NCBI GenBank assembly: GCA_028715785.1 | Contig: JAQURC010000001.1 | Coordinates: forward strand, 140,766-204,765 | Length of the DNA stretch: 64,000 bases | Direction: 5' to 3' | Source of the DNA: Candidatus Omnitrophota bacterium | Lineage (GTDB): Bacteria > Omnitrophota > Gorgyraeia > Gygaellales > Profunditerraquicolaceae | Shown here: one piece after another, positions 17,997 through 35,797 of the stretch | Layout: the number at the start of each line of letters is the position of its first letter | How positions within the stretch are numbered: the first letter of the stretch is position 1 | Notes under the pieces: generated by a model | What the model was told of the DNA's origin: nothing | Database searches by the model: none | Seen by the model: the letters and a program-made list of their open reading frames with translations, nothing else | Translations under genes and position numbers: made by a program

Positions 17997-18003
17997 AGAA
18001 TTT

Positions 18004-18093
18004 GGAGAGGTCGCATAGGCTGGTCGATTGCACCGGTCTTGAAAACCGGAAGGGGACTTGTTCCCCTCGCGAGTTCGAATCTCGCCCTCTCCG
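18004..18093 (+). tRNA. tRNA-Ser(TGA)
   Basis: Acceptor GGAGAGG/CCTCTCC, anticodon loop CTTGAAA, long variable arm GGGGACTTGTTCCCC, T-arm GCGAGTTCGAATCTCGC. Confidence 0.75.
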
Positions 18094-18118
18094 TTTATTT
18101 TTTAATTTTAAAGGTGCT

Positions 18119-19156
18119 ATGGCAGAGCAGATTAAAAATAAAAGGGTAAAATTTCCCGAAGGTAAACAGAAATTGTTTATCGCAAACGTTAGTAAGAGAT
18201 TAAACTTAGGACGGGATAAGCTGTCTAAAATTTTTAATATAAGCAGGCGGACATTAAGTGATTGGTGCAGAGAAAAATCTACTATGAATTATAAAGCTCT
18301 TTTAGATTTGTATGTTAATTGTAATATACCAATTCCAAAAGAAATTAAGATTTTACCACAATTTTGGTACGTTAAGAAAGCGGCTAAGCTTGGAGCGTTT
18401 ATGCGGAATAAACTTTACGGAAATTTTGGTACGCCCGAAGGAAGACGGAGGGGTGGCCTTGCTACAATAGAGAAATTTATGCGTAAGCCTGAGCTAGCTA
18501 AGAAATTAGGATTAAGAATTATTAAAGATATAAACCGCCCTAAAAGGGGCTTGCAATTAGCGGAATTTGTGGGTATAGTATTGGGCGATGGAGGACTAAC
18601 AGATTATCAGCTGAAGATTACTTTTAATAGAGACACAGACGCTGAACACGCGGATTTTATGAAAGAGTTGATAAAAAAACTCTTTAAATTAACACCAAAA
18701 ATAATTTCAAAAAAGTTAGATAAAGGAAGTGATATCGCGGTTTATAGTAAGAATTTGGTAGAGTTTTTAGAGAGTAACGGCTTGAAGAGGGGAAATAAAG
18801 TTAAAAATAAAGCAGATATTCCCTTCTGGATAAAAAGGAATAATAATTTTCAATTATCTTGCCTGCGGGGATTGATGGATACCGATGGTTCTTGCTATAC
18901 ATATTCGCATAACGTTAATAAAAAGAGATATTATAATGCCGCGCTTTGTTTCGCTAATGCTTCAGAGCCTTTGCTAAGAAGTGTTTACAATATCTTTGAC
19001 ATGAATGGATATTATCCTTGTATTACCGGCAGGCGTGTTTATGTGTATGGGAAGAATGAAATCGCAAAATATTTTCAAAAAGTAGGCACGCATAATCCTA
19101 AACATTTGCAAAAGTACCAAAAATTTATTAGTCCTAAGAATAACTTGAATAAGTAG
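18119..19156 (+). CDS. Free-standing LAGLIDADG-family homing endonuclease-like protein with an N-terminal HTH region
   Basis: Two dodecapeptide motifs (GIVLGDGGL and LRGLMDTDGSC). ATG at 18119; the upstream part of the track ORF is just tRNA-Ser read-through. Confidence 0.7.
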   Translation: MAEQIKNKRVKFPEGKQKLFIANVSKRLNLGRDKLSKIFNISRRTLSDWCREKSTMNYKALLDLYVNCNIPIPKEIKILPQFWYVKKAAKLGAFMRNKLYGNFGTPEGRRRGGLATIEKFMRKPELAKKLGLRIIKDINRPKRGLQLAEFVGIVLGDGGLTDYQLKITFNRDTDAEHADFMKELIKKLFKLTPKIISKKLDKGSDIAVYSKNLVEFLESNGLKRGNKVKNKADIPFWIKRNNNFQLSCLRGLMDTDGSCYTYSHNVNKKRYYNAALCFANASEPLLRSVYNIFDMNGYYPCITGRRVYVYGKNEIAKYFQKVGTHNPKHLQKYQKFISPKNNLNK

Positions 19157-19161
19157 ATTTT

Positions 19162-19246
19162 GGAAGGATGGGAGAGTGGTTGAATCCAGACGCCTCGAAA
19201 GCGTCCAGGCCGCGAGGCCTCGCAGGTTCGAATCCTGCTCCTTCCG
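19162..19246 (+). tRNA. tRNA-Ser(CGA)
   Basis: Acceptor GGAAGGA/TCCTTCC, anticodon loop CTCGAAA, long variable arm, T-arm GCAGGTTCGAATCCTGC. Confidence 0.75.
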
Positions 19247-19284
19247 CTGTAAGATTTAGCCAAATTTAGTTAAAATTTATTTTT

Positions 19285-19369
19285 GGAGAGGTGGCAGAGT
19301 GGTCGAATGCGCGCGCTTGGAGAGCGCGTGACTCGCAAGGGTCCCAGGGTTCGAATCCCTGCCTCTCCG
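19285..19369 (+). tRNA. tRNA-Ser(GGA), the integration target whose 3' end is repeated downstream
   Basis: Acceptor GGAGAGG/CCTCTCC, anticodon loop TTGGAGA, T-arm AGGGTTCGAATCCCT. The 3' 15–25 nt recur at 33971, 40589 and 43174. Confidence 0.75.
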
Positions 19370-19561
19370 TTGTCTTATTTATGCTAAGCAAAAGCATAGC
19401 AACATATACCCGCCAAAATTACCGCAACTCCTATTAAAATCAGTTAGTTACATTGCAGGAAAAGCAAAGCCATTTCAAGATATGACAATATCTCTGGAAT
19501 GGCTTTTTTTGCTTTCTGGTGGTGTTTTGGTGGTGTTTTTGGTGAAAGACCAGTGAGAAGG

Positions 19562-20104
19562 ATGACTCCGGCGACAAGGTTGCTTCGCGATAGATTAGTA
19601 GGTAAATACCTGCATTTTTCTAAACGAAATAAGTTAGCGGATGACGGCTCATTTTATTGCGCTGATAAATACTTAATGGAGCAATTAGGCATTAGCAATA
19701 GTACGATTCAAAGAGCGCGTAGTTATTTAAAAGAAACCGGGGAAATTGATTATGTTATTGGCAAACATAAGGGTAATCCTACGCGGTACTGGATCATATC
19801 AAAGGGTATCAAAATGGAACCCTTTGGACAAGAGATAAAGGGTGTCAAAATGACTGCAAAGGGTGTCAATTTGGTTGTCAAAGGGTATCAAAATGAGACC
19901 CTCTATAATAATGAAGTAAAGAAGGAAGAAAGTAAAAAGGATATACCCGATGCCCTTTCTTTTACCGAAGAAGACAAAGAGGGGATAAGGGCTTTTGCTA
20001 AGTCATATGGGGATGAGAAAGCAATTAAAACCCTGTCAGATAAAGGCTATAATCCGGAATCAATAAGGCAGATACTTGAGGGCATGGCATCATGCAAAGA
20101 ATAA
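19562..20104 (+). CDS. Hypothetical DNA-binding / replication-initiator-like protein of the integrated element
   Basis: wHTH-like segment (LMEQLGISNSTIQRARSYLKETGEI), KG[IV]KM peptide repeats encoded by DNA iterons. The start is uncertain: the track start at 19499 lies inside a hairpin + T-run. Confidence 0.35.
   Translation: MTPATRLLRDRLVGKYLHFSKRNKLADDGSFYCADKYLMEQLGISNSTIQRARSYLKETGEIDYVIGKHKGNPTRYWIISKGIKMEPFGQEIKGVKMTAKGVNLVVKGYQNETLYNNEVKKEESKKDIPDALSFTEEDKEGIRAFAKSYGDEKAIKTLSDKGYNPESIRQILEGMASCKE
19800..19900 (+). repeat. Four tandem ~20-bp iteron-like direct repeats AAAGGGT(A/G)TCAAAATG inside the Rep-like gene
   Basis: Seen directly at about 19801, 19838, 19858 and 19879. Confidence 0.5.
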
Positions 20105-20214
20105 AGACAAATCAAGATATTCATAGCCAAAATAATGCACATTTTTTTGATACTAAATTCCAAATAATGGACACTTGACTGTGCACTCTTTATATTTACT
20201 CATGCGCATTAATT

Positions 20215-20320
20215 GCTATTTGCCTGCGGTAAGCCTTCGCGCAATTCTTCCAACAAGCCTTGCGAAGGCTACCGCATACCAAGCACCAAAAAAATCACTC
20301 AAAACCACTAAGGGAGGCTA
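20215..20320. repeat. Left arm of a 106-bp near-perfect inverted repeat
   Basis: The reverse complement of 21709..21814 matches 20215..20320 with a single mismatch (A/G at 20281). Confidence 0.8.
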
Positions 20321-20333
20321 AAGCCTAAAGAAG

Positions 20334-21110
20334 ATGAGAAAAGGAAGGGTTTGTAAAGAAGAACAGAAACGCAGGATTAAGTTGTTATTAAGATTTATAT
20401 TTACTTTCAAATATGCCACTAGAAACCAAGCTGATATATTCATTCAACAGATAATGAATATGACATATACTCGCAGGCTTATTGCCTATTGTTTAAAAGA
20501 GGGTTATCTCAAATCGTGCCGGGAGCGCTGGTCTAAAGTCAAGATCTATTACTTGACTAAAAAAAGCACGGATTTTATCTTTGAAGAAGAATGTTTTGCC
20601 GAAGATTATCGCTTTGAAAAAAGCTGCCTTGGCGTAAACACGTTTAACCTGCATAATATAGCAGTCGAAGTTTATTTCAAGTTGAAAAAGCTCCTGATTA
20701 TCAAAGAATGGTTCTGCGCGTGGGTTTTGAGGATAGGCGAGCATAAAAGGGCCCTAATCCCGGATAGCGTTATAGCGCTTCAGTCCGGAACAGTTATCGC
20801 CCTGGAAATCGAAACCCAAGTTAAGAAGCTTTCTGAGTTAAAGCATTTGATTGATATATATCGTTATGATATTGACAAAAAGCCCAAGTATGATGCTGTC
20901 TTAATGGTAATTGAATATAAGTTTGATTACGAAGGCATTAAAAAAAGGCTGTTTCACCTTGCGCCGGAATTTTGTTCCAGGACCTTCCTTTTGGCAGATC
21001 TAGATATGTTTAATCAAGGATTGTGTTTTTATGCAAATGAAGTCAGAAGCTTAGAAGAAGCGTTTAAGCTATTGGAAGAGAAAAGTAGAAGTTCACCTTT
21101 GATTTCTTAA
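20334..21110 (+). CDS. Hypothetical protein; possible PD-(D/E)XK-like / replication-relaxation-like protein
   Basis: IPDSVIAL....IALEIETQVKK resembles a restriction-endonuclease-like D...ExK core. Weak call. Starts 14 bp after the left inverted repeat. Confidence 0.35.
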   Translation: MRKGRVCKEEQKRRIKLLLRFIFTFKYATRNQADIFIQQIMNMTYTRRLIAYCLKEGYLKSCRERWSKVKIYYLTKKSTDFIFEEECFAEDYRFEKSCLGVNTFNLHNIAVEVYFKLKKLLIIKEWFCAWVLRIGEHKRALIPDSVIALQSGTVIALEIETQVKKLSELKHLIDIYRYDIDKKPKYDAVLMVIEYKFDYEGIKKRLFHLAPEFCSRTFLLADLDMFNQGLCFYANEVRSLEEAFKLLEEKSRSSPLIS

Positions 21111-21231
21111 AATAAGCCTGCCAAAATCCTTGCTAAAGGCACAAGCGCGCATTAAAATATTGTTGTTTAAGGCCTGAAGAAGGGCACTAATATTGTTTTA
21201 AGCTTTCGCTCCATATAACGCTAAATCTTAA

Positions 21232-21711
21232 ATGTGGAAAACCTACCAGTACATTGCCCGCCGTTATCCAACATGGTTAACTCGAGATGAAGCAAGGCGT
21301 TTAATTCTAGAGGCCCAAAACGGCTCAAAACAAAGTAAGGATGAACTTATTCTTCGACACATTGGGTTTCTAATTTTTAAAGTCCGTACAAAACTATTTC
21401 CTGGGGTACTTAAGCGATACGGAGAGGATATGCTTGCAGAGGTTATTTTACATGCTTATGAGAAAATCAATACTTATGATTTAAATTACTGCGATAAGCA
21501 GGGGAATCCTTTACCCGTCAAATTTACCACTTATATTTGGAAGGACATAGACTGGTTTATAATAAAATCACTAAAGAGGGAGTTTGGATTAAATAAGACG
21601 CATAAGGAATATTCCAAGAATGAAGAACTTTATGAAGAAGATGACGAATTCAACGCCTACAAAAAGAATAAAATTGATCACAGAAGAAACCAACAATGGA
21701 GGCCTATTTAG
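21232..21711 (+). CDS. Hypothetical protein, possibly sigma-70 region-2-like
   Basis: DELILRHIGFLIFKV....AEVILHAYEKINTYD loosely resembles a sigma region 2 signature. Its stop codon is the first bases of the right inverted repeat. Confidence 0.3.
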   Translation: MWKTYQYIARRYPTWLTRDEARRLILEAQNGSKQSKDELILRHIGFLIFKVRTKLFPGVLKRYGEDMLAEVILHAYEKINTYDLNYCDKQGNPLPVKFTTYIWKDIDWFIIKSLKREFGLNKTHKEYSKNEELYEEDDEFNAYKKNKIDHRRNQQWRPI

Positions 21712-21814
21712 CCTCCCTTAGTGGTTTTGAGTGATTTTTTTGGTGCCTGGTATGCGGTAGCCTTCGCAAGGCTTGTTGGAAGAATTGCGCGAAGGCTTAC
21801 CGCAGGCAAATAGC
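21709..21814. repeat. Right arm of the 106-bp inverted repeat
   Basis: See the left arm at 20215..20320. Confidence 0.8.
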
Positions 21815-21901
21815 TTTAAGTGCTTGGGGATAACTGGAAATAAACCTTGACATTTCTTCCCTAACGCTATACACTTATTAATAAATGTATAGCAAAAGGG
21901 A

Positions 21902-22510
21902 GTGTACATGGGTAATAGAGAAACAGAGCTTATAAATTTCCTTAAGAGAAAAAGTGGGCTAGCTAGTTACGCGGAAATAAAAGAAGCCGGTTTTAATAAA
22001 GCCCTTCTTAAGGTTAGCCTGAATTCCGGCCGCATTCAGAAAGTTGATCGTGCGCTGTATGAACTATCCGAAGGTATTTCAGTCTCGAACCCTGACTTGG
22101 TAGCTATTTCAATCAAGGCCCCAAAGGGTGTTGTATGCCTAGTTTCTGCTCTTGCTTTTCATGGAGCGACAACCGAGATTCCTCAATTTGTAGCTATAGC
22201 TATTCCCCGCGGCGCCCATGCCAATAAAATCAAGTATCCGCCAGTAAAGTTTTACCGTTTTGCTTCCAAAGCTTGGGAAGCTGGTATAGAAGAACATAAA
22301 ATTGAAGGCCACAAAATCAAAGTCTATAATCTTGCTAAAACAATTGCGGATTGCTTTAAATTCCGTAACAAAATCGGTATGGACGTTGCGCGTGAGGCTC
22401 TTAAGGTAGCTATAACAGAAAAGAAGATTCTCCCAAAAGACATTATGAAATATGCTAAGATCTGCCGTATTGATAGTATTATTAAACCGATACTGGAAAC
22501 AATGATATGA
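21902..22510 (+). CDS. abiEi: AbiEi-family antitoxin / transcriptional regulator (type IV TA)
   Basis: N-terminal wHTH (ELINFLKRKSGLASYAEIKEAGFNKALL...RALYEL) typical of AbiEi. Overlaps the next gene by 4 nt. Confidence 0.65.
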   Translation: MYMGNRETELINFLKRKSGLASYAEIKEAGFNKALLKVSLNSGRIQKVDRALYELSEGISVSNPDLVAISIKAPKGVVCLVSALAFHGATTEIPQFVAIAIPRGAHANKIKYPPVKFYRFASKAWEAGIEEHKIEGHKIKVYNLAKTIADCFKFRNKIGMDVAREALKVAITEKKILPKDIMKYAKICRIDSIIKPILETMI

Positions 22511-23421
22511 AAAAAGATATCACTAATATTCAAGCTTCTATTCGGACCAGGCTTAAAAATAAAGCTAAAGAAACAAATCGTCCGTTTGCAGAAATTCTGC
22601 AATATTACGGCATGGAAAGATTCCTTTATAGGTTTAGCCGTTCAAAATACGCAGATAAATTTATCTTAAAGGGAGCGCTTTTGTTTACAGTATGGCAGGT
22701 TCCTGAAAGGCGGATAACATTAGATATTGATTTCTTAGCGCGCTATGATAACAAGGTGGCTAGTATTGAGACAGTAGTTAGAGATATCTGTCAGGTGCCT
22801 GTTGATTCTGACGGGCTTATATTCGATTCAGAGACGGTTCAAGGGCGCAAGATTAAAGAAGACGCTGATTACGAAGGAGTCCGCGTGAAATTTATCGGAT
22901 TTCTGGAGCGTTCACGTATACATATGCAAATTGATGTGGGTTTTGGCGATATCATCTATCCGAAGCCCCAAGTGATTGATTATCCTACTATTCTAAGTTT
23001 GCCAAAACCGCATTTTAAAGGATATCCTGTGGAAAGTGTAGTTAGTGAAAAATTTGAGGCTATGGTTAAGCTTGGTCTTTTAAATAGCCGGATGAAAGAC
23101 TTCTATGATATCTGGCTTATGATACGGCAGTTTAATTTTAACGGATCGGATCTTGCCGAAGCACTAAAAAGAACATTTGAGCATCGTAAAACTAATATTC
23201 CCGCAGGAAAGCCATTATTCGCGGAAGAAATCTATGACGAAAAATCTGATCGTCAAACACTCTGGAAAGCGTTTTTAAGAAAAGGTAATATTAAACACGC
23301 ATCGGAAAAGCTGGCTATAACAGCAAAAGAGATAGAAAATTTTCTTATTAAACCGCTGGATGCTATTAATAAGTCGAAGAAGTTTATAGGCGCATGGAAG
23401 GCTCCTGGACCATGGAAATAG
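22507..23421 (+). CDS. abiEii: AbiEii/AbiGii-family nucleotidyltransferase toxin (DUF1814)
   Basis: N-terminus ...IRTRLKNKAKE..RPFAEILQYYGMERFLYRFS...FILKGALLF is characteristic of the family. Confidence 0.75.
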   Translation: MKKDITNIQASIRTRLKNKAKETNRPFAEILQYYGMERFLYRFSRSKYADKFILKGALLFTVWQVPERRITLDIDFLARYDNKVASIETVVRDICQVPVDSDGLIFDSETVQGRKIKEDADYEGVRVKFIGFLERSRIHMQIDVGFGDIIYPKPQVIDYPTILSLPKPHFKGYPVESVVSEKFEAMVKLGLLNSRMKDFYDIWLMIRQFNFNGSDLAEALKRTFEHRKTNIPAGKPLFAEEIYDEKSDRQTLWKAFLRKGNIKHASEKLAITAKEIENFLIKPLDAINKSKKFIGAWKAPGPWK

Positions 23422-23615
23422 CTTTAACTTTGGAATATAATATTTAATCCAAAGAAATAAGTATGTGGCCCAAGATTTTTACGAGCATATGCAATCAAGA
23501 AGAAAAGAAACCTTCATGAGCCGTAGTTCATAGAACAAAGACAAGTGAAGGTTTTTTATTTAACAATATAATCTAATAACTATGGTTCATTTGGTAGGGT
23601 TGAGAGGAGGACGTA

Positions 23616-25019
23616 ATGGCAAAATTAACAAAACCAATAGTTAGAGAAATTATTGATGATTTCGTTCAAGAGATTGAAAGGCGTAAAACGAAAGGACCTA
23701 AACCCTCGAAGGAAGTAATCAATTTTAGAAATGAATTAAAAACGGGATTCGAAAGAGATGTATGGTTAGTCCCAGCCGAACTATTGCTTTATAGAAAGGA
23801 TAATGGAAGAATTGCTTCCGATGTGTTGAATTATGAAAAAAACTTTGGTAAGCTCGATGAAAAAACAGAAGAAGGGCAAAAAATTATCAGGAAATTTCTT
23901 GAAGATAAAGACGAAGAAAAGACAAAAGAATTAATGCAATCTGTTAAACATGAAGGACAACGAGAGCCTGCGATTATTACCTGTGACGGGTTTCTTATTA
24001 ATGGCAATAGAAGAAAGATGGTTTTAGAAAAACTACATGGGCAAGCGCATGATATTTATATGAAAGTAGTGATTCTTCCGGGAAAAGATGACCAAGGAGG
24101 GTCGCCTTCTCAACTCGAGATAGAACAAATCGAAAATAGATATCAACTTCAAAGTGATGGAAAAGCAGAGTATTATGCATTTGATCGAGCATTGTCAATT
24201 AAAAGAAAAATGGCTTTGGGGATGAGTCTTGAAGATCAATTAAAAGATGATCCTGTTTTTGCAGGATTGGATGACAAAAAATTTAAGAAGGCTGTTAGGG
24301 ACCATTATGACGAATATCTTAAACCCTTAGAATGCATAGATAGATATTTAGCATTATTAGGTAGAGAAGAATTATACGGTACTATATCAACTGGAATGGG
24401 AGATAGAGAAGGAAGATGGCAAGCTTTTTTAGATTATTATAATTTTGTTTATAAAAAACTTGAGGATGCAAAACAAAGGATGGAATTAGGGGTTGAAGAT
24501 AAAGAGGTGGGTAAAATTGAGTCTGTGGCTTTTAAAATAATACGTTTGAGAGGGATCGAAGGTATTTCTGATATGTCAAAAGTTCATCAAGTAATGAGAA
24601 AACTTGGCCATTGGCTTAAGAATAGAGATGCAAAGAAAGAATTAATGGCTCTTGCTAATATTGGTTTTGAACTGCCAAAAAATGAATGTTGTGATAAGGA
24701 TGGTAATGAGTATGAAATGGACATGATTGACAGATTATGGTGTAACAAAAACAGAAGCGAAATTATAAGAAGGGTAAAAAAAGCCAAATTTTTAAGAGAT
24801 AATGACAATGAAAGGGAAATTACAATTATACTGCTTGAAAAGGCATTGGAAATATTAAATGACGATTCTCTTGATCCCGAGACCGTTCCATTTGACAGTT
24901 ATTTAAATGCTATGAAATCGGCGAGAGACATTGGAGCGAGAGCCAAAGAAATTGAAGCAGAATTTTATCATTTACAAAAAAAGAATAACGAATTTTTAAA
25001 GAACAAAAAATCAAAATGA
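23616..25019 (+). CDS. ParB/Srx-like nuclease-domain protein
   Basis: QREPAIITCDGFLINGNRRKMVLEKL resembles the ParB N-terminal motif (hydrophobic–GERR–A). Strong ribosome-binding site GAGGAGGA. Overlaps the next gene by 4 nt. Confidence 0.5.
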   Translation: MAKLTKPIVREIIDDFVQEIERRKTKGPKPSKEVINFRNELKTGFERDVWLVPAELLLYRKDNGRIASDVLNYEKNFGKLDEKTEEGQKIIRKFLEDKDEEKTKELMQSVKHEGQREPAIITCDGFLINGNRRKMVLEKLHGQAHDIYMKVVILPGKDDQGGSPSQLEIEQIENRYQLQSDGKAEYYAFDRALSIKRKMALGMSLEDQLKDDPVFAGLDDKKFKKAVRDHYDEYLKPLECIDRYLALLGREELYGTISTGMGDREGRWQAFLDYYNFVYKKLEDAKQRMELGVEDKEVGKIESVAFKIIRLRGIEGISDMSKVHQVMRKLGHWLKNRDAKKELMALANIGFELPKNECCDKDGNEYEMDMIDRLWCNKNRSEIIRRVKKAKFLRDNDNEREITIILLEKALEILNDDSLDPETVPFDSYLNAMKSARDIGARAKEIEAEFYHLQKKNNEFLKNKKSK

Positions 25020-26926
25020 TCTATATTTCATTTAAGGAAAATGCGTTAATTATTCCTGATGTTAAACAAAATCTAAGCGCTGAGCAAATAAGCCAGCTTG
25101 TCTGGTTTGGTTTAAAACGTCATCCCGATAACAGTTCAATCTTATTTAATCAGGTATCTGAAGAAATCTTTCTTAAAATAATAGATTACTTAGAAACTGA
25201 AAAAGTTAAGTTTGCTTTATCTAATGATGTAAAAAATATCTTAGAACGAATTAGGCTTAGTGAAGATCATTTCCGTGATCGGTCAAAAATGGCACAAGAA
25301 TTTAAAGATGGTAAATTAAGAAGTGAAGAAATCAAACAATTCTGCCAATTTGTATCTAAGCTTCCTCGGAAATTTAAGGTCCATCAAATAAAAGCGGCGT
25401 GTCATTTGTATCTTTTAAAAGATAGTGCAAATTTTTCTGTTCCTGGTAGCGGAAAAACATCGGTCGTTTTAGCGGTTTATGAAAAATTGCGAGTAGAAAA
25501 GAAAGTAAATGTTTTGTTTGTAGTGGGACCTCCTTCTTGTTTTGGGCCGTGGAGAAAGGAATTTGAAGCTACGCTTGGAAGGAAGCCTAAAGTCAAAATA
25601 CTCTCTGGTATAGGGCAGAAACATAGAATGAATATTTATTGGGACTATCCGGAAAACGCCGAATTATGCTTAACAACATTTCAAACATTATTAAATGACA
25701 GTCTTGCGGTTAAGCAATTTTTTAAGAGGAAGAATATCGACATATTTTTAGTAATAGATGAAGCGCATTACATAAAACAGGTAGGGGGGAATTGGGCAAA
25801 AGCTGTCTTAGATATCTCATCACTAGCTAAATGTAAATGCGTACTTACAGGAACACCTATGCCTAGAAGTTATACTGATGTTTTTAATATGTTCGATTTC
25901 TTATATGGTAAATATTCGCCCTTTTCATTACAAGAAAAGATTAAGGTCCAATGGCTAGAAAAGAAGAAAGATGACGAAAAAATAAGAAACATGCTTGATC
26001 AAAAAATTGGCCCTTTGTTTTATAGGGTGCGAAAAAGAGACCTAGGGTTATTGCCTCAGATTTTCCACCCCGAAAGATTAATTAAAATGAATAAATATGA
26101 GGAGCTAATTTATAAAGCAATTGAAAATAAAATCCTCAACTATTCAAAAGACGCCTTTCTTAACAATATTGAAACGATTATGCAATTAAGGAAAGGTAGG
26201 ATTATACGTTTACGGCAATGTGTATCTTATGCAGGATTACTTGCGAAGCCTATCGAAGATTACCCTGAGAATTTAATAAAAGGGGAAATTAACCTAAGAA
26301 AAATTATTCTTAACTATGATAAGCTTGAAAAACCGGCTAAGCTTGAATTATTACTTGAGATGGTTAAGAAATTCAATTCAGATAAAGAAAAAGTAATTGT
26401 TTGGGTTAATTTCATTGGGACGTTGGAATTATTAAGGAAAGCATTGCTAAAATCAGGAATCATTTGCGAAAAGATTTATGGAGCAACTCCGGTTGAAAAT
26501 GAAAAATTAGAAAATGCAATTACTAGGGAAAAAATTATCGATAAATTTAAGAAACAAAATAGCGGACTCGATGTTTTATTATTAAATCCTGCGGCTTGCG
26601 CTGAATCAATTTCACTCCATCAAACATGTTTTAGGGCGATTTACTACGATTTATCGTATAATTGTGCGCAGTATCTTCAGTCATTAGATAGAATCCACCG
26701 TGTAGGAGGTTCTGAACATAAGACAGCGCATTATTATTTCCTTCAATATAAGAATACAATCGATGAAGATATAAAAAGCAATTTGGATAAGAAAGTTATA
26801 AGAATGAATAAAATCTTTGAGAAAGACTATTGTATTTATTCTCTTGATATGTTTGAAGAAGATGGGGATTTGGCCGCATATGAAAGACTTTTTGGTCAGA
26901 GGAAGCAAACAATTAGAAAGAATTAA
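25016..26926 (+). CDS. SNF2-family (DEAH) helicase
   Basis: Motif I GSGKTS, II VIDEAHYIK, III LTGTPMP, VI LQSLDRIHRVGG. Confidence 0.8.
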   Translation: MIYISFKENALIIPDVKQNLSAEQISQLVWFGLKRHPDNSSILFNQVSEEIFLKIIDYLETEKVKFALSNDVKNILERIRLSEDHFRDRSKMAQEFKDGKLRSEEIKQFCQFVSKLPRKFKVHQIKAACHLYLLKDSANFSVPGSGKTSVVLAVYEKLRVEKKVNVLFVVGPPSCFGPWRKEFEATLGRKPKVKILSGIGQKHRMNIYWDYPENAELCLTTFQTLLNDSLAVKQFFKRKNIDIFLVIDEAHYIKQVGGNWAKAVLDISSLAKCKCVLTGTPMPRSYTDVFNMFDFLYGKYSPFSLQEKIKVQWLEKKKDDEKIRNMLDQKIGPLFYRVRKRDLGLLPQIFHPERLIKMNKYEELIYKAIENKILNYSKDAFLNNIETIMQLRKGRIIRLRQCVSYAGLLAKPIEDYPENLIKGEINLRKIILNYDKLEKPAKLELLLEMVKKFNSDKEKVIVWVNFIGTLELLRKALLKSGIICEKIYGATPVENEKLENAITREKIIDKFKKQNSGLDVLLLNPAACAESISLHQTCFRAIYYDLSYNCAQYLQSLDRIHRVGGSEHKTAHYYFLQYKNTIDEDIKSNLDKKVIRMNKIFEKDYCIYSLDMFEEDGDLAAYERLFGQRKQTIRKN

Positions 26927-27869
26927 ATTTCCTCAAATAGCGATATTTCTGAATATACTGTTTGAAAATCGCTTATTAGAAGAAGAATTTATTCGAAGAA
27001 ATTTTCGTAGGCATTCTTACAACTACGAAAGTACAAAAAATTTTTTGATTGACATCGGTTTGGCTAAAATCGATAAGAAAGCTATTATTCCCTTAGAAGA
27101 TTTGGAAAATATAGATATTAGGAATGAAAAAGAAGAAGGTAAATTTAAAAAGTATATTATAACTAAGATAGTAAATTCTAACTCCTTTTACAAGGCTCTC
27201 TTGAAGAGTTTTCTCGGAGAATTTAGACAGGAAGAATCAGCATTAATTTTTACACCCAAATTGAAGCAAAGATTAGATTTAAGTGGCATTAGAAATTTTC
27301 TGATAGATTTTGGAGTAATCCGTTTTGATGAAGGGAACAAAGCTTATATAGTAGAAAAAGATTTTGAGGATTTATGTCCAGCTAAACGAAAAGCAAATGT
27401 CACCCTAGTTAATTTTTTACGCTGCAGGAGGGAAGAAGAGAGGCTAGGAAAGAGTGCAGAGCTTAAAATTTTAGAATTTGAAAGAAACAGATTGGCAAGA
27501 TTCCCTACTTTGTTAAAAAGAATTAAACGAATTTCTGATGTAAATATTTCTGCAGGATATGATATTCTTAGTTTTGAAGAAACTCAAGAAAATTTTCCTA
27601 ACAGATTTATTGAAGTCAAAGCAGTTCCTAACGAAGATTTTCATTTTTATTGGTCAAAGAATGAAATAGAAATGGCTATTAGCCAAAAGGAAAGATATTA
27701 TTTATATTTATTGCCAGTTGTCAGAAGGAACAAGTTTGATCTAGAGAAATTATTGATTATAAGTAATCCATATAAAAAAATCTTTGAAAATAAACATGAA
27801 TGGATGAGAGATATTGAAATATATAGCTTCCAAAAATCTGCTGGACCTCAACAATCCATTCTGTTATAA
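26880..27869 (+). CDS. DUF3883-like PD-(D/E)XK-fold protein
   Basis: C-terminal GYDILSFEE....RFIEVKAV (D...E-V-K) restriction-endonuclease-like core. Start uncertain: no Met for a long stretch after the helicase stop, so it may be translationally fused or coupled. Confidence 0.45.
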   Translation: MKDFLVRGSKQLERIKFPQIAIFLNILFENRLLEEEFIRRNFRRHSYNYESTKNFLIDIGLAKIDKKAIIPLEDLENIDIRNEKEEGKFKKYIITKIVNSNSFYKALLKSFLGEFRQEESALIFTPKLKQRLDLSGIRNFLIDFGVIRFDEGNKAYIVEKDFEDLCPAKRKANVTLVNFLRCRREEERLGKSAELKILEFERNRLARFPTLLKRIKRISDVNISAGYDILSFEETQENFPNRFIEVKAVPNEDFHFYWSKNEIEMAISQKERYYLYLLPVVRRNKFDLEKLLIISNPYKKIFENKHEWMRDIEIYSFQKSAGPQQSILL

Positions 27870-27879
27870 TAAGAATAAA

Positions 27880-28803
27880 ATGAAAGCACAGTTAAAGAAG
27901 AATAAACATGCTAGAATTGTAAAAAGTCCATTTGGGTATTTTGGATCTAAGCATAGAATAGCCCTACCACTTATTAAATATATACCTCCACATAATGCAT
28001 GGGTTGATGCATTCTGTGGTTCTGCAGCTGTAACTTTTGCTAAATCACCAGCCCAAATAGAAATAATTAATGATATTAATGGGGAAATTGTAAACTTTTT
28101 TCGGCAATTGAGAAGAAATGGTTCTGAGCTTTGCCGCGAGATTGCCATGACGCCTTATGCTAAGGAAGAATTGTTTTCTGCCCGCTTACATAAGAAAAAT
28201 CTTTCTTCTTTAGAACGAGCTAGGAGATTTTTAGTTTCTTCAATGATGGCTATCAATGGGATATTTGGGGAAGAAAAAGGAGGTTTCTCTTTTTCTAATT
28301 CTTATGCAAGGAATGGGAAAGAGGCAAGGGTTAGTCGATGGTATAATTTACCAGTCCGCTTAGAGGCAATCGTTGAACGATTGAGGAATATAAGGATTGA
28401 ACATAAGGATGCCAGAGAGCTGATTAAAGGTTTTCTTAAACGGCCTGCTACGCTATTATATCTTGACCCGCCATACTTTGCAGAAAGAACCCAAGGTTAT
28501 GAATTTGATCAGAATAATGAAAAATTCCATAAAGAACTTCTTAAATTAGTTTGTAAAGCTAAATGTATGGTAATGATAAGTAGCTACAATAGCGAATTAT
28601 ATGAATCCATTCTTACGAGCAAGCTTGGATGGAAACAGATAAAAATCGCAACACATACCCAGGGTTCAAATGGTAAGCGCATGACTAGAACGGAAATCTT
28701 GTGGTTGAATAAAAATTGTATTGATGCTAAGCGATCACAAATTGTCCCCGTGGTATTATCCAAGAAAGAAAAAAAGACGGGGAAGGTAAATCCTATCAAA
28801 TAA
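27880..28803 (+). CDS. Dam-family (D12 class) N6-adenine DNA methyltransferase
   Basis: SPFGYFGSKHR...AFCGSAAV (SAM motif) and LLYLDPPYF (DPPY catalytic motif). Confidence 0.8.
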   Translation: MKAQLKKNKHARIVKSPFGYFGSKHRIALPLIKYIPPHNAWVDAFCGSAAVTFAKSPAQIEIINDINGEIVNFFRQLRRNGSELCREIAMTPYAKEELFSARLHKKNLSSLERARRFLVSSMMAINGIFGEEKGGFSFSNSYARNGKEARVSRWYNLPVRLEAIVERLRNIRIEHKDARELIKGFLKRPATLLYLDPPYFAERTQGYEFDQNNEKFHKELLKLVCKAKCMVMISSYNSELYESILTSKLGWKQIKIATHTQGSNGKRMTRTEILWLNKNCIDAKRSQIVPVVLSKKEKKTGKVNPIK

Positions 28804-28809
28804 TAGGGA

Positions 28810-30309
28810 ATGCTTATAACAGCTAGTAAGCTATACGACTATTTACAATGTCCCCATAAAGTATGGAGGGATATTTATGGACCTCAAGAAGAAAAAATTG
28901 ATGAAAAGAATCCATTTGTTGAATTGCTTTGGGAAAAGGGCGCACTTCATGAAAAAGAAATAATTTCTGGAATTGGTTCATTTATTGATTTAAGCGAAGG
29001 AACTATTGAAGAAAGAATAAACAAGACATTAGCAGAGATTAAAAAGGGGACGACGTTAATTTATCAGGGTGTTATTCGTTATGAAAACCTCTTAGGCATA
29101 CCAGATTTGCTTAGAATAATGCCTACCGGTAATTATCTTCCCATTGATATTAAGTCAGGAAAAGGATTTGAGGGCCCAGATGAATCCGAAGATGAAGAGA
29201 TAATGCCCAAAAAGCATTATGCAGTACAGCTTTCTCTCTACGTTGAAATTTTATTGAACTTATCCTTTGCAAGCGAGAAAAAGGGAGCCATAATTGATAT
29301 TAGTGGCCGGGAGCTCGTTTATTTGTTAGAAAACGCCCAAGGGGTAAGGAATACGCAGACTTGGTGGGAACTCTATTTAGAAATAAAGAATAGAGTTTCA
29401 GAATTAGTTTCGAATCAAGTGCAGGATAAGCCTGCAATAGCTGGGTCGTGTAAATTATGCCCTTGGTATAATAGCTGTAAAAAATGGTGCTTAGAAAAGG
29501 AAGATTTGACCAAGATTTTCTATCTTGGAAGAAGCAATAGAGAGATTTTAAACAAGGATCTGGGTATAGAGAAAGTAAGAGAGTTGAAAACATTAAATAT
29601 TTCTGATCTTTTAGCTAAAAAGAAGAAAGACAAGACATTCCTTAAAGGATTTGGTGAGACACTTTTAAAAAAGTTTATCACTCGCGCAATAATATTAGAC
29701 GAAACAAAAAAGCCAGTTTTGCACCAACAAGTGCACTTACCAGAAGTTAAAAAAGAACTATTCTTTGATATTGAAGATGATCCAACCCAAGATTTTGTCT
29801 ATCTACATGGAATTTATTCTCGGGATGCAAAGAGTGAAGAGTATATTTATTTCTTGGCTAAAGAAAACACGCGAGATGCTGAGAAGAAAGCTTGGCAAGA
29901 ATTCTGGAATTATATTGATACTTTACATGTTAGTGACTATTCAATTTACTACTATTCTCATCATGAGAAAACAGCGTATAGAAGGTTAAGTCAGAGATAT
30001 CCTGAGATAATCGCAAAAGAAAAGTTAGATACTTTTTTCGACAATCCGAACGCAATTGATTTATACCGAGTAGTAGAAAAGCATACAGATTGGCCTCTTT
30101 CTAGCTATTCACTCAAGGATTTGGCCACTTATCTTGGTTTTAAGTGGAGAGATGAGAGTCCTTCTGGAGCATTGTCTATCCGTTGGTATAACGATTTTCT
30201 ACAAAATCACTCCGAAGAATTGCTTAAACGAATACTTGAATATAACGAAGATGATTGTCGGGCTACGATGGTTCTTAAGGATGGAATCTCGAAGTTAAAT
30301 AAGGAGTAG
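28810..30309 (+). CDS. Cas4/RecB-like PD-(D/E)XK nuclease fused to an RNaseH-like (DEDD-type) exonuclease domain (TM0106-like architecture)
   Basis: N-terminal LQCPHKVWRD, GIPDLL....PIDIKSGK nuclease core, Cys cluster CKLCPWYNSCKKWC (Fe-S type), C-terminal EYNEDDCRATMVL. Confidence 0.6.
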   Translation: MLITASKLYDYLQCPHKVWRDIYGPQEEKIDEKNPFVELLWEKGALHEKEIISGIGSFIDLSEGTIEERINKTLAEIKKGTTLIYQGVIRYENLLGIPDLLRIMPTGNYLPIDIKSGKGFEGPDESEDEEIMPKKHYAVQLSLYVEILLNLSFASEKKGAIIDISGRELVYLLENAQGVRNTQTWWELYLEIKNRVSELVSNQVQDKPAIAGSCKLCPWYNSCKKWCLEKEDLTKIFYLGRSNREILNKDLGIEKVRELKTLNISDLLAKKKKDKTFLKGFGETLLKKFITRAIILDETKKPVLHQQVHLPEVKKELFFDIEDDPTQDFVYLHGIYSRDAKSEEYIYFLAKENTRDAEKKAWQEFWNYIDTLHVSDYSIYYYSHHEKTAYRRLSQRYPEIIAKEKLDTFFDNPNAIDLYRVVEKHTDWPLSSYSLKDLATYLGFKWRDESPSGALSIRWYNDFLQNHSEELLKRILEYNEDDCRATMVLKDGISKLNKE

Positions 30310-30407
30310 CCATTTATCTTGACTTTTAGATAAAAAGGAGTATTATTTATTTAACAATTAGGTGTGTCCCGTGTTTGAAGGGGGAAGTCCCGGACGTTAA
30401 AAAAGTA

Positions 30408-30455
30408 AAACCTTCGTTGGTCAAGTTAAGACCGGCGAGGGTTTTTTGTTTTATA
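30408..30455 (+). terminator. Rho-independent terminator after the nuclease gene
   Basis: About 12-bp stem (CCTTCGTTGGTC...GACCGGCGAGGG, with G·U pairs) followed by TTTTTTGTTTT. Confidence 0.5.
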
Positions 30456-30500
30456 ATATTAATTTAGAAAACCAACTAAACTAACAAAAGGTGGTGAAAT

Positions 30501-31976
30501 ATGACACAAGAAAAGATTAAATGTCCACAATGCGGCACACAATTTGAACTAACAGAGGTTATTTCTCGAGAAATTGAAGCAACTATAAGTCAGAAATACG
30601 AAACACAAATTAGTACTCTAAGAACAGAAGCTGAAGCGCGAGAAAAGCAACTAAAAGAACAGTTTAAATCTGAGCAACACAAGATAGCAGAACAAGCTAA
30701 AAGAGACGCTGCTGAAGCATTGAAAATCGAGCTTGAAACAATAAGATCTCTGCTATCCGAGAAGTCAAAGAAACTTGAAGCTGCCGATAAGAAAGAACTC
30801 GAATTAATAAAGCGTGAGCAATCTGTGCAAGAAAAAGAAAGATCAATGTCGCTTGATTTTGAAAATAAGCTTGCTGTTAAAGAAAAGGAAATTCGAGCTT
30901 TACTCGATAAAGAGAAGAAGGCTGCTGAAGAAAAAGTGCGTAAGCAAGCCGAACAGGCTTATTCCGTTGAGCTAAAAGACACTCAAGAGCAGCTAAAGGA
31001 TTTATCAAAACAATTAGAAGAAAGTCGACAGCAGGAACTGGCATTACGCAAAAGGCAAAGGGAGTTAGAAGATAGGGAGAAATCTCTTGAGTTGGATGCG
31101 ATGCGGAAAGTTGATGCTGAGAAGGGCAAGATTACCGAAGAAGCTAAACGTCAGTTTGAAGAGAAGCACCGGCTTAAGGATGCTGAAAAAGACAAGAAGT
31201 TGGCCGATATGACCCGCCAAATAGATGAACTTAAGCGTAAGGCAGAGCAAGGATCACAACAAGCGCAGGGTGAAATTCTTGAGCTTGATTTGGAAGGCAG
31301 ATTACACTCAAGATTCCCGATGGATGATATTGAGCCCATCCAAAAAGGGATTAAAGGCGGAGATGCTCTTGAAACTGTAAAGTCTCAATTGGGCCATGCA
31401 TGTGGGAAAATCTTGTGGGAGTCTAAGCGAACAAAGGCTTGGAGTGATTCCTGGATACAAAAGGCAAAAGACGATCAATTGGCCGCAAAAGCTGATTTAG
31501 TCGTTATTATGACAGAGATTTTGCCGAAAGGTGTTCAACAATTTGACCAAATTAATGGTGTTTGGGTAGTAGATATCTCTTCAGCGATCAACCTGGCAGT
31601 TGCGCTTAGAACAGGCATGATTCAGGTGGCCCGAGAGCGTGAGCTGCAAGCAGGCAAACAGGGTAAGATGGAGCTAGTCTATAATTATCTGACTGGTCCT
31701 GAATTTAGAAATAGAATAGAGGCTATGGTTAGTTCCTTTGTTGCTATAAAAAGCGTATTAGACGCTGAAAAAAGAGCGATGCAAAAGCTTTGGGCTAGAA
31801 GGGAAAAGCAAATTGAGCGCGTCATAGATAATATCAGTGGTATGCATGGGGATTTAGAGGGTATAGCCGGGAAGGCATTACCAGTTATAAGGGTTCTAGA
31901 GCTACCGGTGGATGGTGGTGAAGGGGAATCCGTTGAGACACAAGAATGGCTGAAAGACGATTCGTTAGAATCTTAA
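30501..31976 (+). CDS. DUF2130-like protein: N-terminal zinc ribbon, long coiled coil, C-terminal globular domain
   Basis: MTQEKIKCPQCGTQFELTEV start, followed by about 280 aa of heptad-rich E/K/Q/R sequence. Confidence 0.5.
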   Translation: MTQEKIKCPQCGTQFELTEVISREIEATISQKYETQISTLRTEAEAREKQLKEQFKSEQHKIAEQAKRDAAEALKIELETIRSLLSEKSKKLEAADKKELELIKREQSVQEKERSMSLDFENKLAVKEKEIRALLDKEKKAAEEKVRKQAEQAYSVELKDTQEQLKDLSKQLEESRQQELALRKRQRELEDREKSLELDAMRKVDAEKGKITEEAKRQFEEKHRLKDAEKDKKLADMTRQIDELKRKAEQGSQQAQGEILELDLEGRLHSRFPMDDIEPIQKGIKGGDALETVKSQLGHACGKILWESKRTKAWSDSWIQKAKDDQLAAKADLVVIMTEILPKGVQQFDQINGVWVVDISSAINLAVALRTGMIQVARERELQAGKQGKMELVYNYLTGPEFRNRIEAMVSSFVAIKSVLDAEKRAMQKLWARREKQIERVIDNISGMHGDLEGIAGKALPVIRVLELPVDGGEGESVETQEWLKDDSLES

Positions 31977-31991
31977 AAAGAACAATATGAT

Positions 31992-32411
31992 TTAGAGCGA
32001 TTCTGCCATATCCTCTAACTTCTTTATTGTACTCGCAAATTTAGCTACTATTACATTAAGCTTAGCTTTATACTCTTCCAGGCGCCTTTTTATTTCTTTT
32101 TTCTCTTCCGGCGTCTTGTGCTCTTTTAGGGCATTCCTTATGCTCTTCAAAAATTCATCAGCAATATTCTTTTGTCCTTCCTCAAATTCTTTACAGACTT
32201 CTGGGTATTTTGTTCGAAGATAAAGGTCGCCTAGCATCGGATCGTCAAGTGCTTCCTCGATCCTCTTCATTACGGCAGGGGAGGGGATCTTGCCATGCTT
32301 TTCGATATAAGTAATATAAGTAGGGTCTACTCCAATCTTGTTTGCTAAATCTTTGGCTGTTAGTTTAGAAATTTTCCTGCTCGTCTTTATTTCCTCTCCT
32401 AAATTTTTCAT
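31992..32411 (-). CDS. XRE-family HTH transcriptional regulator (element repressor candidate)
   Basis: N-terminal HTH (ISKLTAKDLANKIGVDPTYITYIEKHGKIPS). Divergent from the xis–int module. Confidence 0.65.
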   Translation of the reverse strand: MKNLGEEIKTSRKISKLTAKDLANKIGVDPTYITYIEKHGKIPSPAVMKRIEEALDDPMLGDLYLRTKYPEVCKEFEEGQKNIADEFLKSIRNALKEHKTPEEKKEIKRRLEEYKAKLNVIVAKFASTIKKLEDMAESL

Positions 32412-32427
32412 GGCTACATTATAAATT

Positions 32428-32518
32428 AAATCCTATGAATAGTCAATCATTTTTTTCTTGACAAAAGGCTAATTCGTTTATATAATATCCAATGAATGGT
32501 CAGTCAATTAAATGAGCT
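32428..32518. promoter_or_regulatory. Divergent near-consensus sigma-70 promoters with two operator-like repeats (ATGAATNGTCA..)
   Basis: Plus strand: TTGACA 32468-32473, 17-nt spacer, TATAAT 32491-32496. Minus strand: TTGACT (complement of 32451-32456), 17-nt spacer, TATAAT (complement of 32428-32433). Repeats ATGAATAGTCAATCA at 32445-32459 and ATGAATGGTCAGTCAAT at 32502-32518. Confidence 0.6.
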
Positions 32519-32607
32519 AGCAGATGCCACAATAATCCTCATGCTGATCAAAGAAATGTTTTCAGGTATGTTTAGTAGTTATGGGCAGAGAAAGGAAAGT
32601 GAGGGTA

Positions 32608-32790
32608 ATGATGGATAAAGAAATTCTTACGGTTGAAGATATAGCAAGCATATTGCATATTAGGCCCAATACGATACATAGCAAACGTTGGAAAGAAAGG
32701 ACTGGCTGCCCTTTAAATAAACACGGAAAAAGATTGCTGTCTCACGCTCCTGAATTTTGGAAGTGGTTTGAATCGCAGAGAAACCAATGA
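32608..32790 (+). CDS. xis: Excisionase / AlpA-family HTH DNA-binding protein
   Basis: MDKEILTVEDIASILHIRPNTIHSKRWKE matches the excisionase-family HTH. Overlaps the integrase start by 4 nt. Confidence 0.55.
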   Translation: MMDKEILTVEDIASILHIRPNTIHSKRWKERTGCPLNKHGKRLLSHAPEFWKWFESQRNQ

Positions 32791-33887: not shown

Positions 33888-33970
33888 TGATATGATTACT
33901 GAATTAGGAGAGGTTTTTGGTGGTGTTTCTGGTGGTAAAAGGGGCTTTTTAAGATTAAATTCTAATGTAT

Positions 33971-33985
33971 CCCTGCCTCTCCGAT
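33971..33985 (+). repeat. attR-like direct repeat: 15-nt exact copy of the tRNA-Ser(GGA) 3' end
   Basis: ATCCCTGCCTCTCCG is identical to 19355-19369. It lies 84 bp after the integrase stop. Confidence 0.6.
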
Positions 33986-34387
33986 ATACTTTTTGGATTA
34001 TATTGGGGAATTGGCAGTTACGACACAACTTATTGAAAGTGGGTAAGTTGTGTTTGTTTTTATATGGTAGTGTTTGTTTCTTTTTTTCACTAATAGCGCC
34101 TAAAAGCCGTATAGTTCTGTAAAAACTGTATACCAAGTGTATACCTAAGGTACGGGAAGGGTGGGGACGTACACCATTCAGCCTACTTGATTCGGAAGGT
34201 CTTCATGTGTCATTAGAGGCCCCTGATATTACTTTGTGCCTTTGAGCGCTAAGGAAGTATATCTTCTGCCAAAGGAGATATATCCGGTAAGTGGTTGATA
34301 TTCCACTAGATGTTGTAAGGGTTGGGTAAGGATGAATAAAAGAAAGTAATTGACTTTTTTTGTAGTCATGGTAAGCTTACATTGATT

Positions 34388-34744
34388 ATGAATAGGAAAA
34401 CGTTAGGAGAGAGGATTCGAGAATTGAGAGCCCAAAGGGATTTCTCTCTTCGTGAATTCGCAAAAAAATTAGGTGGGCTTTCGGCGGCATTTCTATCTGA
34501 TGTAGAACTTGGCCGGCGCCATCCGTCTGAAAAGGTGCTAGTCGACATAGCTAGAGTACTTGATACAGCACTTGAAGAGTTACGAAACTATGATACTCGT
34601 GCACCGGTTGAAGATCTCAAACGTCTCGCGTCATCGAACCCTGCATATGGGCTTGCTTTTCGGAAATTAATTGATAAGAAGGTTAGCCCTGAAGATTTAA
34701 TGAAGCTTGCTGAAAAAACGTCCAAGAAAGACGGAAAAAAATGA
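34388..34744 (+). CDS. XRE-family HTH regulator (CapH-like)
   Basis: LGERIRELRAQRDFSLREFAKKLG....LSDVELGRRHPS HTH signature. Overlaps the downstream peptidase by 4 nt. Confidence 0.65.
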   Translation: MNRKTLGERIRELRAQRDFSLREFAKKLGGLSAAFLSDVELGRRHPSEKVLVDIARVLDTALEELRNYDTRAPVEDLKRLASSNPAYGLAFRKLIDKKVSPEDLMKLAEKTSKKDGKK

Positions 34745-35794: not shown

Positions 35795-35797
35795 AGG

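Follow-up and report, generated by a model that had tools for sequence, protein, structure and literature searches.

In the 64,000-nucleotide stretch of Candidatus Omnitrophota DNA analysed here (contig JAQURC010000001.1; hereafter the window), two genes are enclosed by a pair of long inverted repeats, which we call the left and the right arm. Positions 20215–20322 of the plus strand and 21707–21814 of the minus strand are reverse complements of each other along 108 bp, and only one position is mismatched (20282 A versus the complement of 21747); the repeat reaches 2 bp further inward than the 106 bp given in a preliminary description of this DNA, and an imperfect, weak extension of the pairing lengthens it to 117 bp. 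The arms bracket exactly two open reading frames (ORFs), ORF1 (20334–21110, plus strand, 258 aa) and ORF2 (21232–21711, plus strand, 159 aa), and the stop codon of ORF2 (TAG, 21709–21711) lies inside the right arm, just as had been described. The 66-nt core of the arm occurs exactly twice in the window, compared with an expectation of 0 from 100 shuffles.

The left arm (20215–20322, plus strand) comprises a hairpin (20225–20277), a C/A-rich tract (20278–20311) and the Shine–Dalgarno sequence GGGAGG of ORF1. The right arm, with its outer part, occupies 21707–21830 of the minus strand: the 108-bp repeat (21707–21814) with its hairpin (21752–21804) is followed by an outer extension that carries a 17-mer, CCCAAGCACTTAAAGCT (21812–21828). 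This 17-mer is gone from the left arm through a deletion of ~46 nt, as judged from the related locus L007, and the right arm (through 21830) is the sole complete copy of the element in the window; the right arm in turn is without the inner 28 nt that are present in loci of the L007 type. The hairpin in each arm reads TGCGGTA(A)GCCTTCGC..GCGAAGGCTACCGCA, and the folding energy of the arms as single-stranded DNA is −17 to −22 kcal/mol (z-scores −2.6 to −3.5). The left flank reads ..CATGCGCATTAATT, the reverse complement of the end of ORF2 reads TAGGCCTCCATTG.., and the flanks of the cassette, TTAATT and TTTAAG, are not a direct repeat, so that there is no target-site duplication at the cassette. 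Just outside the left arm there is also a promoter-like site, TGGACA-17-TATATT (20168–20196, plus strand), which is a consensus match only, in a flank whose sequence is conserved also in L001 and L007; transcription from this site would make the left arm the leader of ORF1.

Two other roles for the arm were considered and rejected. An intrinsic terminator was discarded since no T-run follows the hairpin on either strand, the terminator scan having returned only a small minus-strand hairpin at the junction. A small arm-encoded protein (ORFs 20175–20321 and 21718–21909, and a 90-aa 'C6' ORF in relatives) was discarded since these frames are shifted by indels despite the kept nucleotides. An Rfam scan of 19000–23000 (E ≤ 1) found tRNAs only, with no match on the arms.

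ORF1 is predicted to encode an N-terminal winged helix followed by a PD-(D/E)XK nuclease domain, as in the Replic_Relax (PF13814) or MOBC-like relaxase family. PF13814 represents the MobC relaxase superfamily (PMC5357655), and MOBC relaxases have a restriction-endonuclease-like PD-(D/E)XK fold with an N-terminal winged helix and bind repeats lying 70–120 bp from nic (PMC12857230). About 100 homologues of ORF1 (103) were found, nearly all in Candidatus Omnitrophota metagenome bins; most of the 103 carry a precomputed PF13814 match, and some have been named 'replication-relaxation family protein' by NCBI. The window ORF1 itself has no Pfam match and matches NCBIfam MobC_subf weakly (E 6.9e-8, 32 bits, the cut-off being 200 bits), and PF13814 was found in 8 of the 20 family members that were aligned. 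The AlphaFold model of ORF1 (pLDDT 90.1) has EcoO109I as its best PDB match (E 4.9e-4), followed by the Can2 and NucS/EndoMS nucleases, and its N-terminal part matches winged helices of the MarR/MecI type. In the family alignment D144, E158, E160 and K164 are invariant or nearly so, and the family profile aligns the PD..ExE..K core with an ORF in the mob region of CloDF13. These similarities of sequence and predicted fold agree with the PD-(D/E)XK-like protein proposed earlier, and we consider ORF1 to be MOBC-like, a putative member of the Replic_Relax/MOBC relaxase superfamily with a predicted nicking role at a cognate origin of transfer (oriT). The gene is under purifying selection, with a ratio of nonsynonymous to synonymous divergence (dN/dS) of 0.11–0.25. 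A search of PLSDB (72,556 plasmids) returned no relative of ORF1 with tblastn and no match to the arm with blastn.

Each arm of the window is homologous to an element that is found in single copy upstream of nearly every other ORF1 homologue in the Omnitrophota, 95–160 nt before the start codon and with constant spacing. This cis element consists of the 17-mer CCCAAGCACTTAAAGCT, then a hairpin with a stem of ~15 bp, and then a C/A-rich tract running into the ribosome-binding site. It also precedes relaxase homologues that are only 44–50% identical to ORF1, and in sequence it is much better conserved than the protein encoded downstream. In the stem, the 3′ half (CGAAGGC[T/A]ACCGCA) hardly varies, and the 5′ half is variable yet complementary. 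The hairpin is present in all family elements, with DNA-fold z-scores of −2.6 to −4.2, and across the family 89.6% of the cells are paired, compared with 33–50% when the partner is slid, four pairs having changed on both sides. Since 1-nt indels between close relatives break the frame of the ORFs that overlap the cis element while the nucleotides are kept, the conservation is at the nucleic-acid and not at the protein level. The 17-mer also has 18 matches in viral contigs, all of them without the hairpin and a relaxase gene, and these were rejected as chance for that reason; a role of the cis element as part of a replication origin was likewise rejected, as it is also present in loci without a replication-initiator (Rep) gene.

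In the full-length relatives this element stands among conjugation genes. Their gene order is a TraG_N/VirB6-like gene, the cis element, the Replic_Relax gene and a gene for a 754-aa coupling protein (TraG-D_C, T4SS-DNA_transf, TrwB_AAD_bind), followed by TrbC/VirB2, TraL/VirB3, TraE/VirB8, CagX/VirB9 and TrbI/VirB10 genes; upstream lie housekeeping genes or an integrase, and no other relaxase was found upstream in these loci. By their gene content they are predicted integrative conjugative elements, with the Replic_Relax protein as their only relaxase candidate. The relatives, and not the window, thus have the full context of a relaxase module, with a coupling protein and type IV secretion system (T4SS) genes adjoining and no second relaxase. 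No inverted second copy of the cis element was found within 6 kb downstream in the conjugative-type loci. Because the cis element is intergenic beside the relaxase gene (near the coupling-protein/T4SS genes), because it is more strongly conserved than the protein, and because the Replic_Relax protein is the only relaxase candidate of the full-length loci, it is most likely an oriT together with the relaxase-binding/leader region. The features by which an oriT would be recognized, namely an intergenic site beside a relaxase gene, an inverted-repeat hairpin and a conserved core, are all present.

The second gene of the cassette, ORF2, encodes a predicted sigma-70 region-2-like domain and a disordered charged tail. 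Its HMM matches are weak. In the Foldseek comparison of its model (pLDDT 68) with the PDB, sigma region 2 accounts for all top matches (at least the first 17), which have a probability of 0.9–1.0, a TM to target of 0.64–0.74 and an rmsd of 2.2–4.2 Å, at E values of only 0.05–0.6, and the fold therefore matches the sigma-region-2-like assignment that had been made from the sequence. Because no region 4 was found in ORF2 and the C-terminal 40 residues (120–159) are predicted to be disordered, with no structural match beyond region 2, it should not be filed as a complete sigma factor. ORF2 has 14 homologues and stands where relatives have a (truncated) coupling-protein gene. A gene 84% identical to it is found in L039 outside any cassette, and the limits of homology fall exactly at 21229 and 21706. 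The nucleotide homology between L039 and the window runs from 3 nt before the ATG to the last sense codon; in L039 this homologue (1953–2430) stands beside an acyl-carrier-protein gene and a ParE toxin gene, with no relaxase cassette. A further homologue outside a relaxase cassette, in L040 (1090–1533), stands beside an IS66 transposase gene.

Inverted arm pairs are present in the window and in L001/2, L007, L010, L032, L035–38, L066 and L068, that is, in at least 10 related loci or independent assemblies, and an assembly artefact can be set aside since the same architecture recurs in them. The synteny in L001/2, L007, L009, L010, L066 and L068 is RtcB, SerRS, tRNA-Ser, a Rep-like gene, the arm, the relaxase gene, further genes, the inverted arm and AbiE-type genes. 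All arm-pair elements are without secretion genes, and a Rep gene is present wherever the upstream side can be read. In close relatives the repeat is longer, 129–167 bp, running from ..ATCCCCAAGCACTTAAAGCT through the hairpin and the C/A-rich tract, and in the L007 type it extends into the Shine–Dalgarno sequence, the ATG and six codons of the relaxase gene. L032, with 44% protein identity, has a homologous arm pair of 137 bp (99% identical) with a different junction. Between the arms, the coupling-protein gene is full length in L032, cut to a membrane domain of ~300 aa and followed by a 64-aa Imm_superinfect-like gene in L001, L007, L066, L068 and others, and replaced by ORF2 in the window and L035–38. 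All cassette genes have a dN/dS of 0.11–0.25, and this purifying selection marks the module as derived but stable rather than as debris.

More than one module may occur in a genome: L033 (positions 1–999) and L010 belong to the same genome bin (JAUYBI01), which has two cassettes in different islands, that of L033 carrying an internal deletion that joins relaxase residues 16–65 to the truncated coupling protein, and two copies of the relaxase module are also found in bins CAKKRH01, PCRK01 and JBDRJF01. In L025 two copies of the cis element (3–79, minus strand; 5881–5933, plus strand) point apart with 5.8 kb between them, and a 439-bp inverted repeat (703–1141 and 5107–5539) includes a 155-aa gene, which suggests that inverted duplications around the cis element recur.

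The history of the repeat can be read from its junctions. The window and L035 have the inner junction of the right arm in common, as the L007-type loci have a junction of a second type; the duplications are therefore older than those lineages, in which the synonymous divergence (dS) of the genes is 0.4–1.2. Within one genome the arms show 0–1 differences (9 in L035), compared with 6–16 differences over 115 columns between same-side arms of different genomes. Since the arms match far better within than between genomes, they evolve in concert by gene conversion, and the ongoing homogenization that the preliminary description had suggested is supported. The window and L035 are separated by a dS of ~1.0–1.2 while their arms differ by 10–13%, an arm divergence ~8-fold slower than that of synonymous sites, meaning that the arm sequence is constrained. 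In L035 most of the differences between left and right arm are in the loop of the hairpin, whose stems are intact.

The genes between and beside the arms have been more mobile. In the ORF1 phylogeny the window groups with the loci having a truncated coupling protein and L035 groups with L068; as this is incongruent with the type of second gene, the second gene has been exchanged between lineages and the cassette is a mosaic. L035–38 have a 2.4-kb insertion of another toxin–antitoxin-like module, bounded on one side by the right arm and on the other by a third, partial copy of the arm; cargo modules appear to be added at the arm. In L041, a relative with 90–95% identity, the whole cassette is gone (a 1.6-kb deletion corresponding to window positions 20227–21826) and the neighbouring genes are intact; L041 keeps 12 nt of the left arm, and its junction, at a GCYTG microhomology, is typical of slippage deletion across a long inverted repeat and not of excision. 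The earlier suggestion of a recombination hotspot is partly supported, by the mosaic cassette, the L035 insertion and the L041 deletion. Site-specific insertion at the arm is not supported, since the breakpoints in the window left arm, the L001 right arm, the L035 third copy and L041 are all at different positions. The third arm copy (17-mer and 5′ half-stem) has the orientation of the right arm, the two lying at 1630–1706 and 4140–4179 of L035 (it is also present in L036–L038), and the 2.4-kb insertion encodes AbiEi_2, NTP_transf_8 and metallophosphatase proteins.

The cassette lies in an integrative element of 14.6 kb (19355–33983, plus strand), whose attL is the 3′ end of a tRNA-Ser(GGA) gene (19355–19369) and whose attR is an exact 15-nt repeat (33969–33983). 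A tyrosine integrase gene (32787–33887, plus strand) stands directly before attR, and the G+C content falls from ~0.47 to 0.30–0.40 across the island region. To the left of the cassette is a replication-initiator-like gene (lambda O/DnaD-like; 19499–20104, plus strand), which is its left neighbour in all relatives of the integrative-mobilisable type. No T4SS domains were found among the island ORFs. The island thus has an integrase, att repeats at a tRNA gene, its own relaxase with a candidate oriT and no mating-pore genes, the combination that marks an integrative mobilisable element, and because it is without secretion genes it looks like such an element from its gene content, with the cassette as the mobilisation module.

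Taken together, we lean towards the reading that the arms are two inverted copies of the relaxase-upstream, oriT-like site, held alike by recombination, and are neither a flip-switch nor a small transposon. According to this reading, the second, inverted copy goes back to an ancient inverted duplication where the module ends downstream, and gene conversion between the arms, as the phylogenetic pattern shows, has kept it almost identical to the first. Purifying selection acts on the arm sequence, and the arms, as comparison of the loci shows, also serve as portable homology for swap, insertion and deletion of modules. The pair would then be two relaxase-binding/oriT sites in opposite orientation, such that either strand could be nicked and led out, as in IncX/R6K, and the island, without secretion genes of its own, would borrow those of a helper. 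Both the oriT activity and the function of the second copy are what we infer from sequence and from analogy.

Several observations weigh against this reading. The Pfam and NCBIfam matches of ORF1 itself are below the curated cut-offs. The oriT is deduced from position and conservation, and a promoter/operator or an RNA leader may be all that the region is. In the window the left arm has lost the 17-mer, as have both arms of L001 and L066, and the arms there are still near-identical; maintenance of the repeat therefore does not depend on the 17-mer, and some of the elements whose arms lack it may be transfer-dead. Gene conversion by itself, with a constrained left arm as donor, could account for the conservation of the right arm. 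In addition, the module is dispensable, since L041 is a natural variant without the cassette.

A dual inverted oriT arrangement is already known from IncX/R6K; what would be new here, if the analogy holds, is its occurrence with a MOBC-type enzyme in an integrative element of the Omnitrophota. The IncX relaxase TaxC is an HUH-type enzyme, whereas the window enzyme is MOBC-like, with a predicted PD-(D/E)XK fold. Compared with the IncX plasmids, the arms here belong to an integrative island, lie 1.4–3.7 kb apart around the mobilisation genes alone, and have an oriT role that is predicted. The nearest precedent is that of the plasmids R6K, pOLA52 and R485, which carry a pair of oriTs within long inverted repeats (PMC3402527; Avila et al. 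1996 via PMC5587640), and the likeness to the window consists of two inverted copies of a transfer origin, one of them beside the relaxase gene, with the pair near a replication-initiator gene (PMC3402527; PMC5587640). Known MOBC systems are those of pAD1, with TraX and oriT2, and of CloDF13, with MobC and the coupling protein MobB. They resemble the present loci in that a winged-helix, restriction-endonuclease-like relaxase is encoded beside a VirD4-type coupling protein, and in that the origin is made of an inverted-repeat structure and a separate binding region tens of bp away (PMC12857230). In contrast to TraX and MobC, to which the similarity in sequence is remote (MobC_subf, 32 versus 200 bits), the window system is known from sequence and has its origin region duplicated in inverted form. 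The streptococcal IME_Class_8 elements are likewise compact integrase islands, in which the PF13814 relaxase may or may not be accompanied by a VirD4 coupling protein and which have no secretion system of their own (PMC5357655), and L032, with a relaxase and a full coupling protein, is like them. IME_Class_8 uses serine integrases, whereas the window island has a tyrosine integrase at a tRNA gene; in the clade of the window, moreover, the coupling protein is cut to its membrane domain or replaced by the sigma-2-like gene, and the leader is duplicated in inverted form.

It is possible, though in our judgement unlikely, that the second arm is a functionless relic, that is, an old inverted duplication of the relaxase leader kept only by gene conversion from the selected left arm. 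The demonstrated concerted evolution would fit such a relic, as would the loss of the 17-mer from both arms in L001 and L066, the loss of the whole cassette from L041 with its neighbour genes intact, and the arm truncations that differ by lineage (the window left arm without the 17-mer, the right arm without the inner 28 nt of the L007 type). However, the architecture has been kept across a relaxase dS above 1 and in the 44%-identical L032 with its different junction, a wide persistence that implies either very long retention or recurrent origin; and the 9 differences in L035, where conversion has lapsed, are concentrated in the loop of the hairpin, leaving its stems untouched.

Regulation at the RNA level would give the pair a function of a different kind, and we regard it as quite improbable. 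With the left arm as the 5′ leader and the right arm as the 3′ end of the mRNA, a 108–167-bp duplex over the ribosome-binding site (and over the start codon in the L007 type) would repress translation or form an RNase III target, keeping the nuclease low. A promoter-like site upstream of the left arm, the stop codon of the last gene inside the right arm and the lack of a canonical terminator before that arm are all consistent with such a transcript, and the arm holds the Shine–Dalgarno sequence in the window and this sequence, the ATG and six codons in the L007-type loci; in L032, however, the repeat ends ~22 nt short of it. The element is moreover single-copy in most loci, so its primary role is independent of arm pairing, the 3′ half-stem and the 17-mer are invariant in sequence beyond what mere complementarity would need, and no Rfam family matches the arms.

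Among known invertible systems, fimS, hin and the shufflons have short repeats (9–30 bp) that serve a dedicated, co-encoded recombinase, and both orientations coexist. The cassette resembles them in having inverted repeats around a short segment and differs from them in its arms of 108–167 bp, in having no recombinase and in being seen in one orientation. The preliminary description had considered an invertible, phase-variable segment, in which recombination between the arms would flip the cassette and uncouple ORF1/ORF2 from an outside promoter, and this we now hold to be very unlikely. The arms are indeed long and near-identical with signs of ongoing exchange, and since the only promoter-like site of ORF1 is outside the segment, a flip would silence ORF1; but none of the ~18 independent loci that link flank to interior across an arm has the cassette flipped with respect to the left Rep gene or the right toxin–antitoxin genes, these being consensus assemblies from which a rare minority orientation could escape, and there is no invertase or recombinase in or beside the cassette, the integrase being 11 kb off at the att site.

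There is similarly little reason to expect that the arms anneal on the single strand entering a recipient cell or on the operon mRNA, forming a 108–167-bp duplex that closes a 1.4–3.7-kb loop of exactly the mobilisation genes. Such a duplex would rebuild a double-stranded recognition site or promoter on DNA that is otherwise single-stranded, whereby the relaxase would act on or re-seal the strand, or the relaxase and its sigma-2-like or membrane partner would be expressed early, before synthesis of the complementary strand. If true, this device would be a new solution to how MOBC-type transfer ends, with a restriction-enzyme-like relaxase that forms no covalent DNA intermediate.

Least probable of all, indeed barely credible, is a foldback, MITE-like or autonomous transposable cassette with the arms as terminal inverted repeats and the ORF1 nuclease for excision, also raised earlier: the repeats do surround a nuclease gene and variants with and without the cassette exist, but the arm is found only twice in 64 kb and in the same context in every relative, with no dispersal, there is no target-site duplication, L041 keeps 12 nt of the left arm with the GCYTG microhomology signature of slippage deletion, and the arms are homologous to a single-copy, gene-upstream element.

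A reading akin to the annealing device, and likewise very unlikely, is that the module of nuclease, coupling-protein membrane domain and Imm-like protein was domesticated for the exclusion of related conjugative elements. How the MOBC PD-(D/E)XK relaxases recognize, cut and re-seal their origin is an open question (PMC12857230). The present locus and ~40 relatives provide a sharply defined candidate origin for it, composed of a 17-mer that does not vary, a hairpin whose 3′ half is likewise invariant, and a C/A-rich tract, and the natural variants with one copy, two inverted copies or a deleted 17-mer make direct biochemical testing possible. The Omnitrophota are an uncultivated phylum of very small bacteria in which conjugation is essentially unstudied. 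The locus is also a clean case of gene conversion holding long inverted repeats alike while the enclosed genes swap, and it may remind annotators that long inverted repeats need not be switches or transposons.

The remaining features of the island are as follows. Four 21–22-nt iteron-like repeats (AAAGGGTRTCAAAATG..) lie at 19801–19900, inside the coding sequence of the initiator gene, an arrangement resembling that of lambda, where the origin is inside gene O; the same repeats also encode a peptide repeat of the KG[IV]KM type. The right neighbour of the cassette is a toxin–antitoxin/abortive-infection pair on the plus strand (21902–23421), formed by AbiEi (21902–22510) and AbiEii (22507–23421). 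A second promoter-like site, TTGACA-17-TACACT (21847–21875), overlaps a 44-bp palindrome, TCCCTAACGCTATACACTTATTAATAAATGTATAGCAAAAGGGA (21858–21901), just upstream of AbiEi, and the region 21847–21901 is probably the autoregulatory operator of AbiE; it is present also in the cassette-less L041. Exact-protein look-ups returned no record for the window AbiEi, nor for ORF1. The cargo at 23616–31976 includes a ParB-like protein of 467 aa, an SNF2 helicase (ZorD/DpdE/DrmD-like), a DUF3883/NOV_C protein (PD-T4-1-like), a D12 (Dam-type) adenine methylase, a Cas4-like PD-(D/E)XK domain fused to an RNase-H-like domain, and a DUF2130 protein, and looks like an uncharacterised defence block from its domain content. 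A small helix-turn-helix (HTH) ORF (32581–32790) is also found within the island.

The 3′ end of the tRNA-Ser(GGA) gene, (T)CCCTGCCTCTCCG of 14–15 nt, at 19355–19369 is found again not only at 33969–33983 but also at 40600–40613 and 43185–43198, which suggests that three integrative elements (14.6, 6.6 and 2.6 kb) have accumulated in tandem at a single tRNA gene; the low G+C content continues to ~41 kb. Between two tRNA-Ser genes, an ORF at 18002–19156 has an HTH and a LAGLIDADG-like domain (weak, E 1.8e-4) and may be the relic of a homing endonuclease; its listed start overlaps the tRNA-Ser(TGA) gene (18003–18094), and the real start is probably more downstream. In the second island, the region 34382–37609 encodes an Xre-type HTH protein with an M78-peptidase-like partner and a ThiF/E1-like protein beside small unknown ORFs, and may be the remnant of a ubiquitin-like or CBASS-type defence system.

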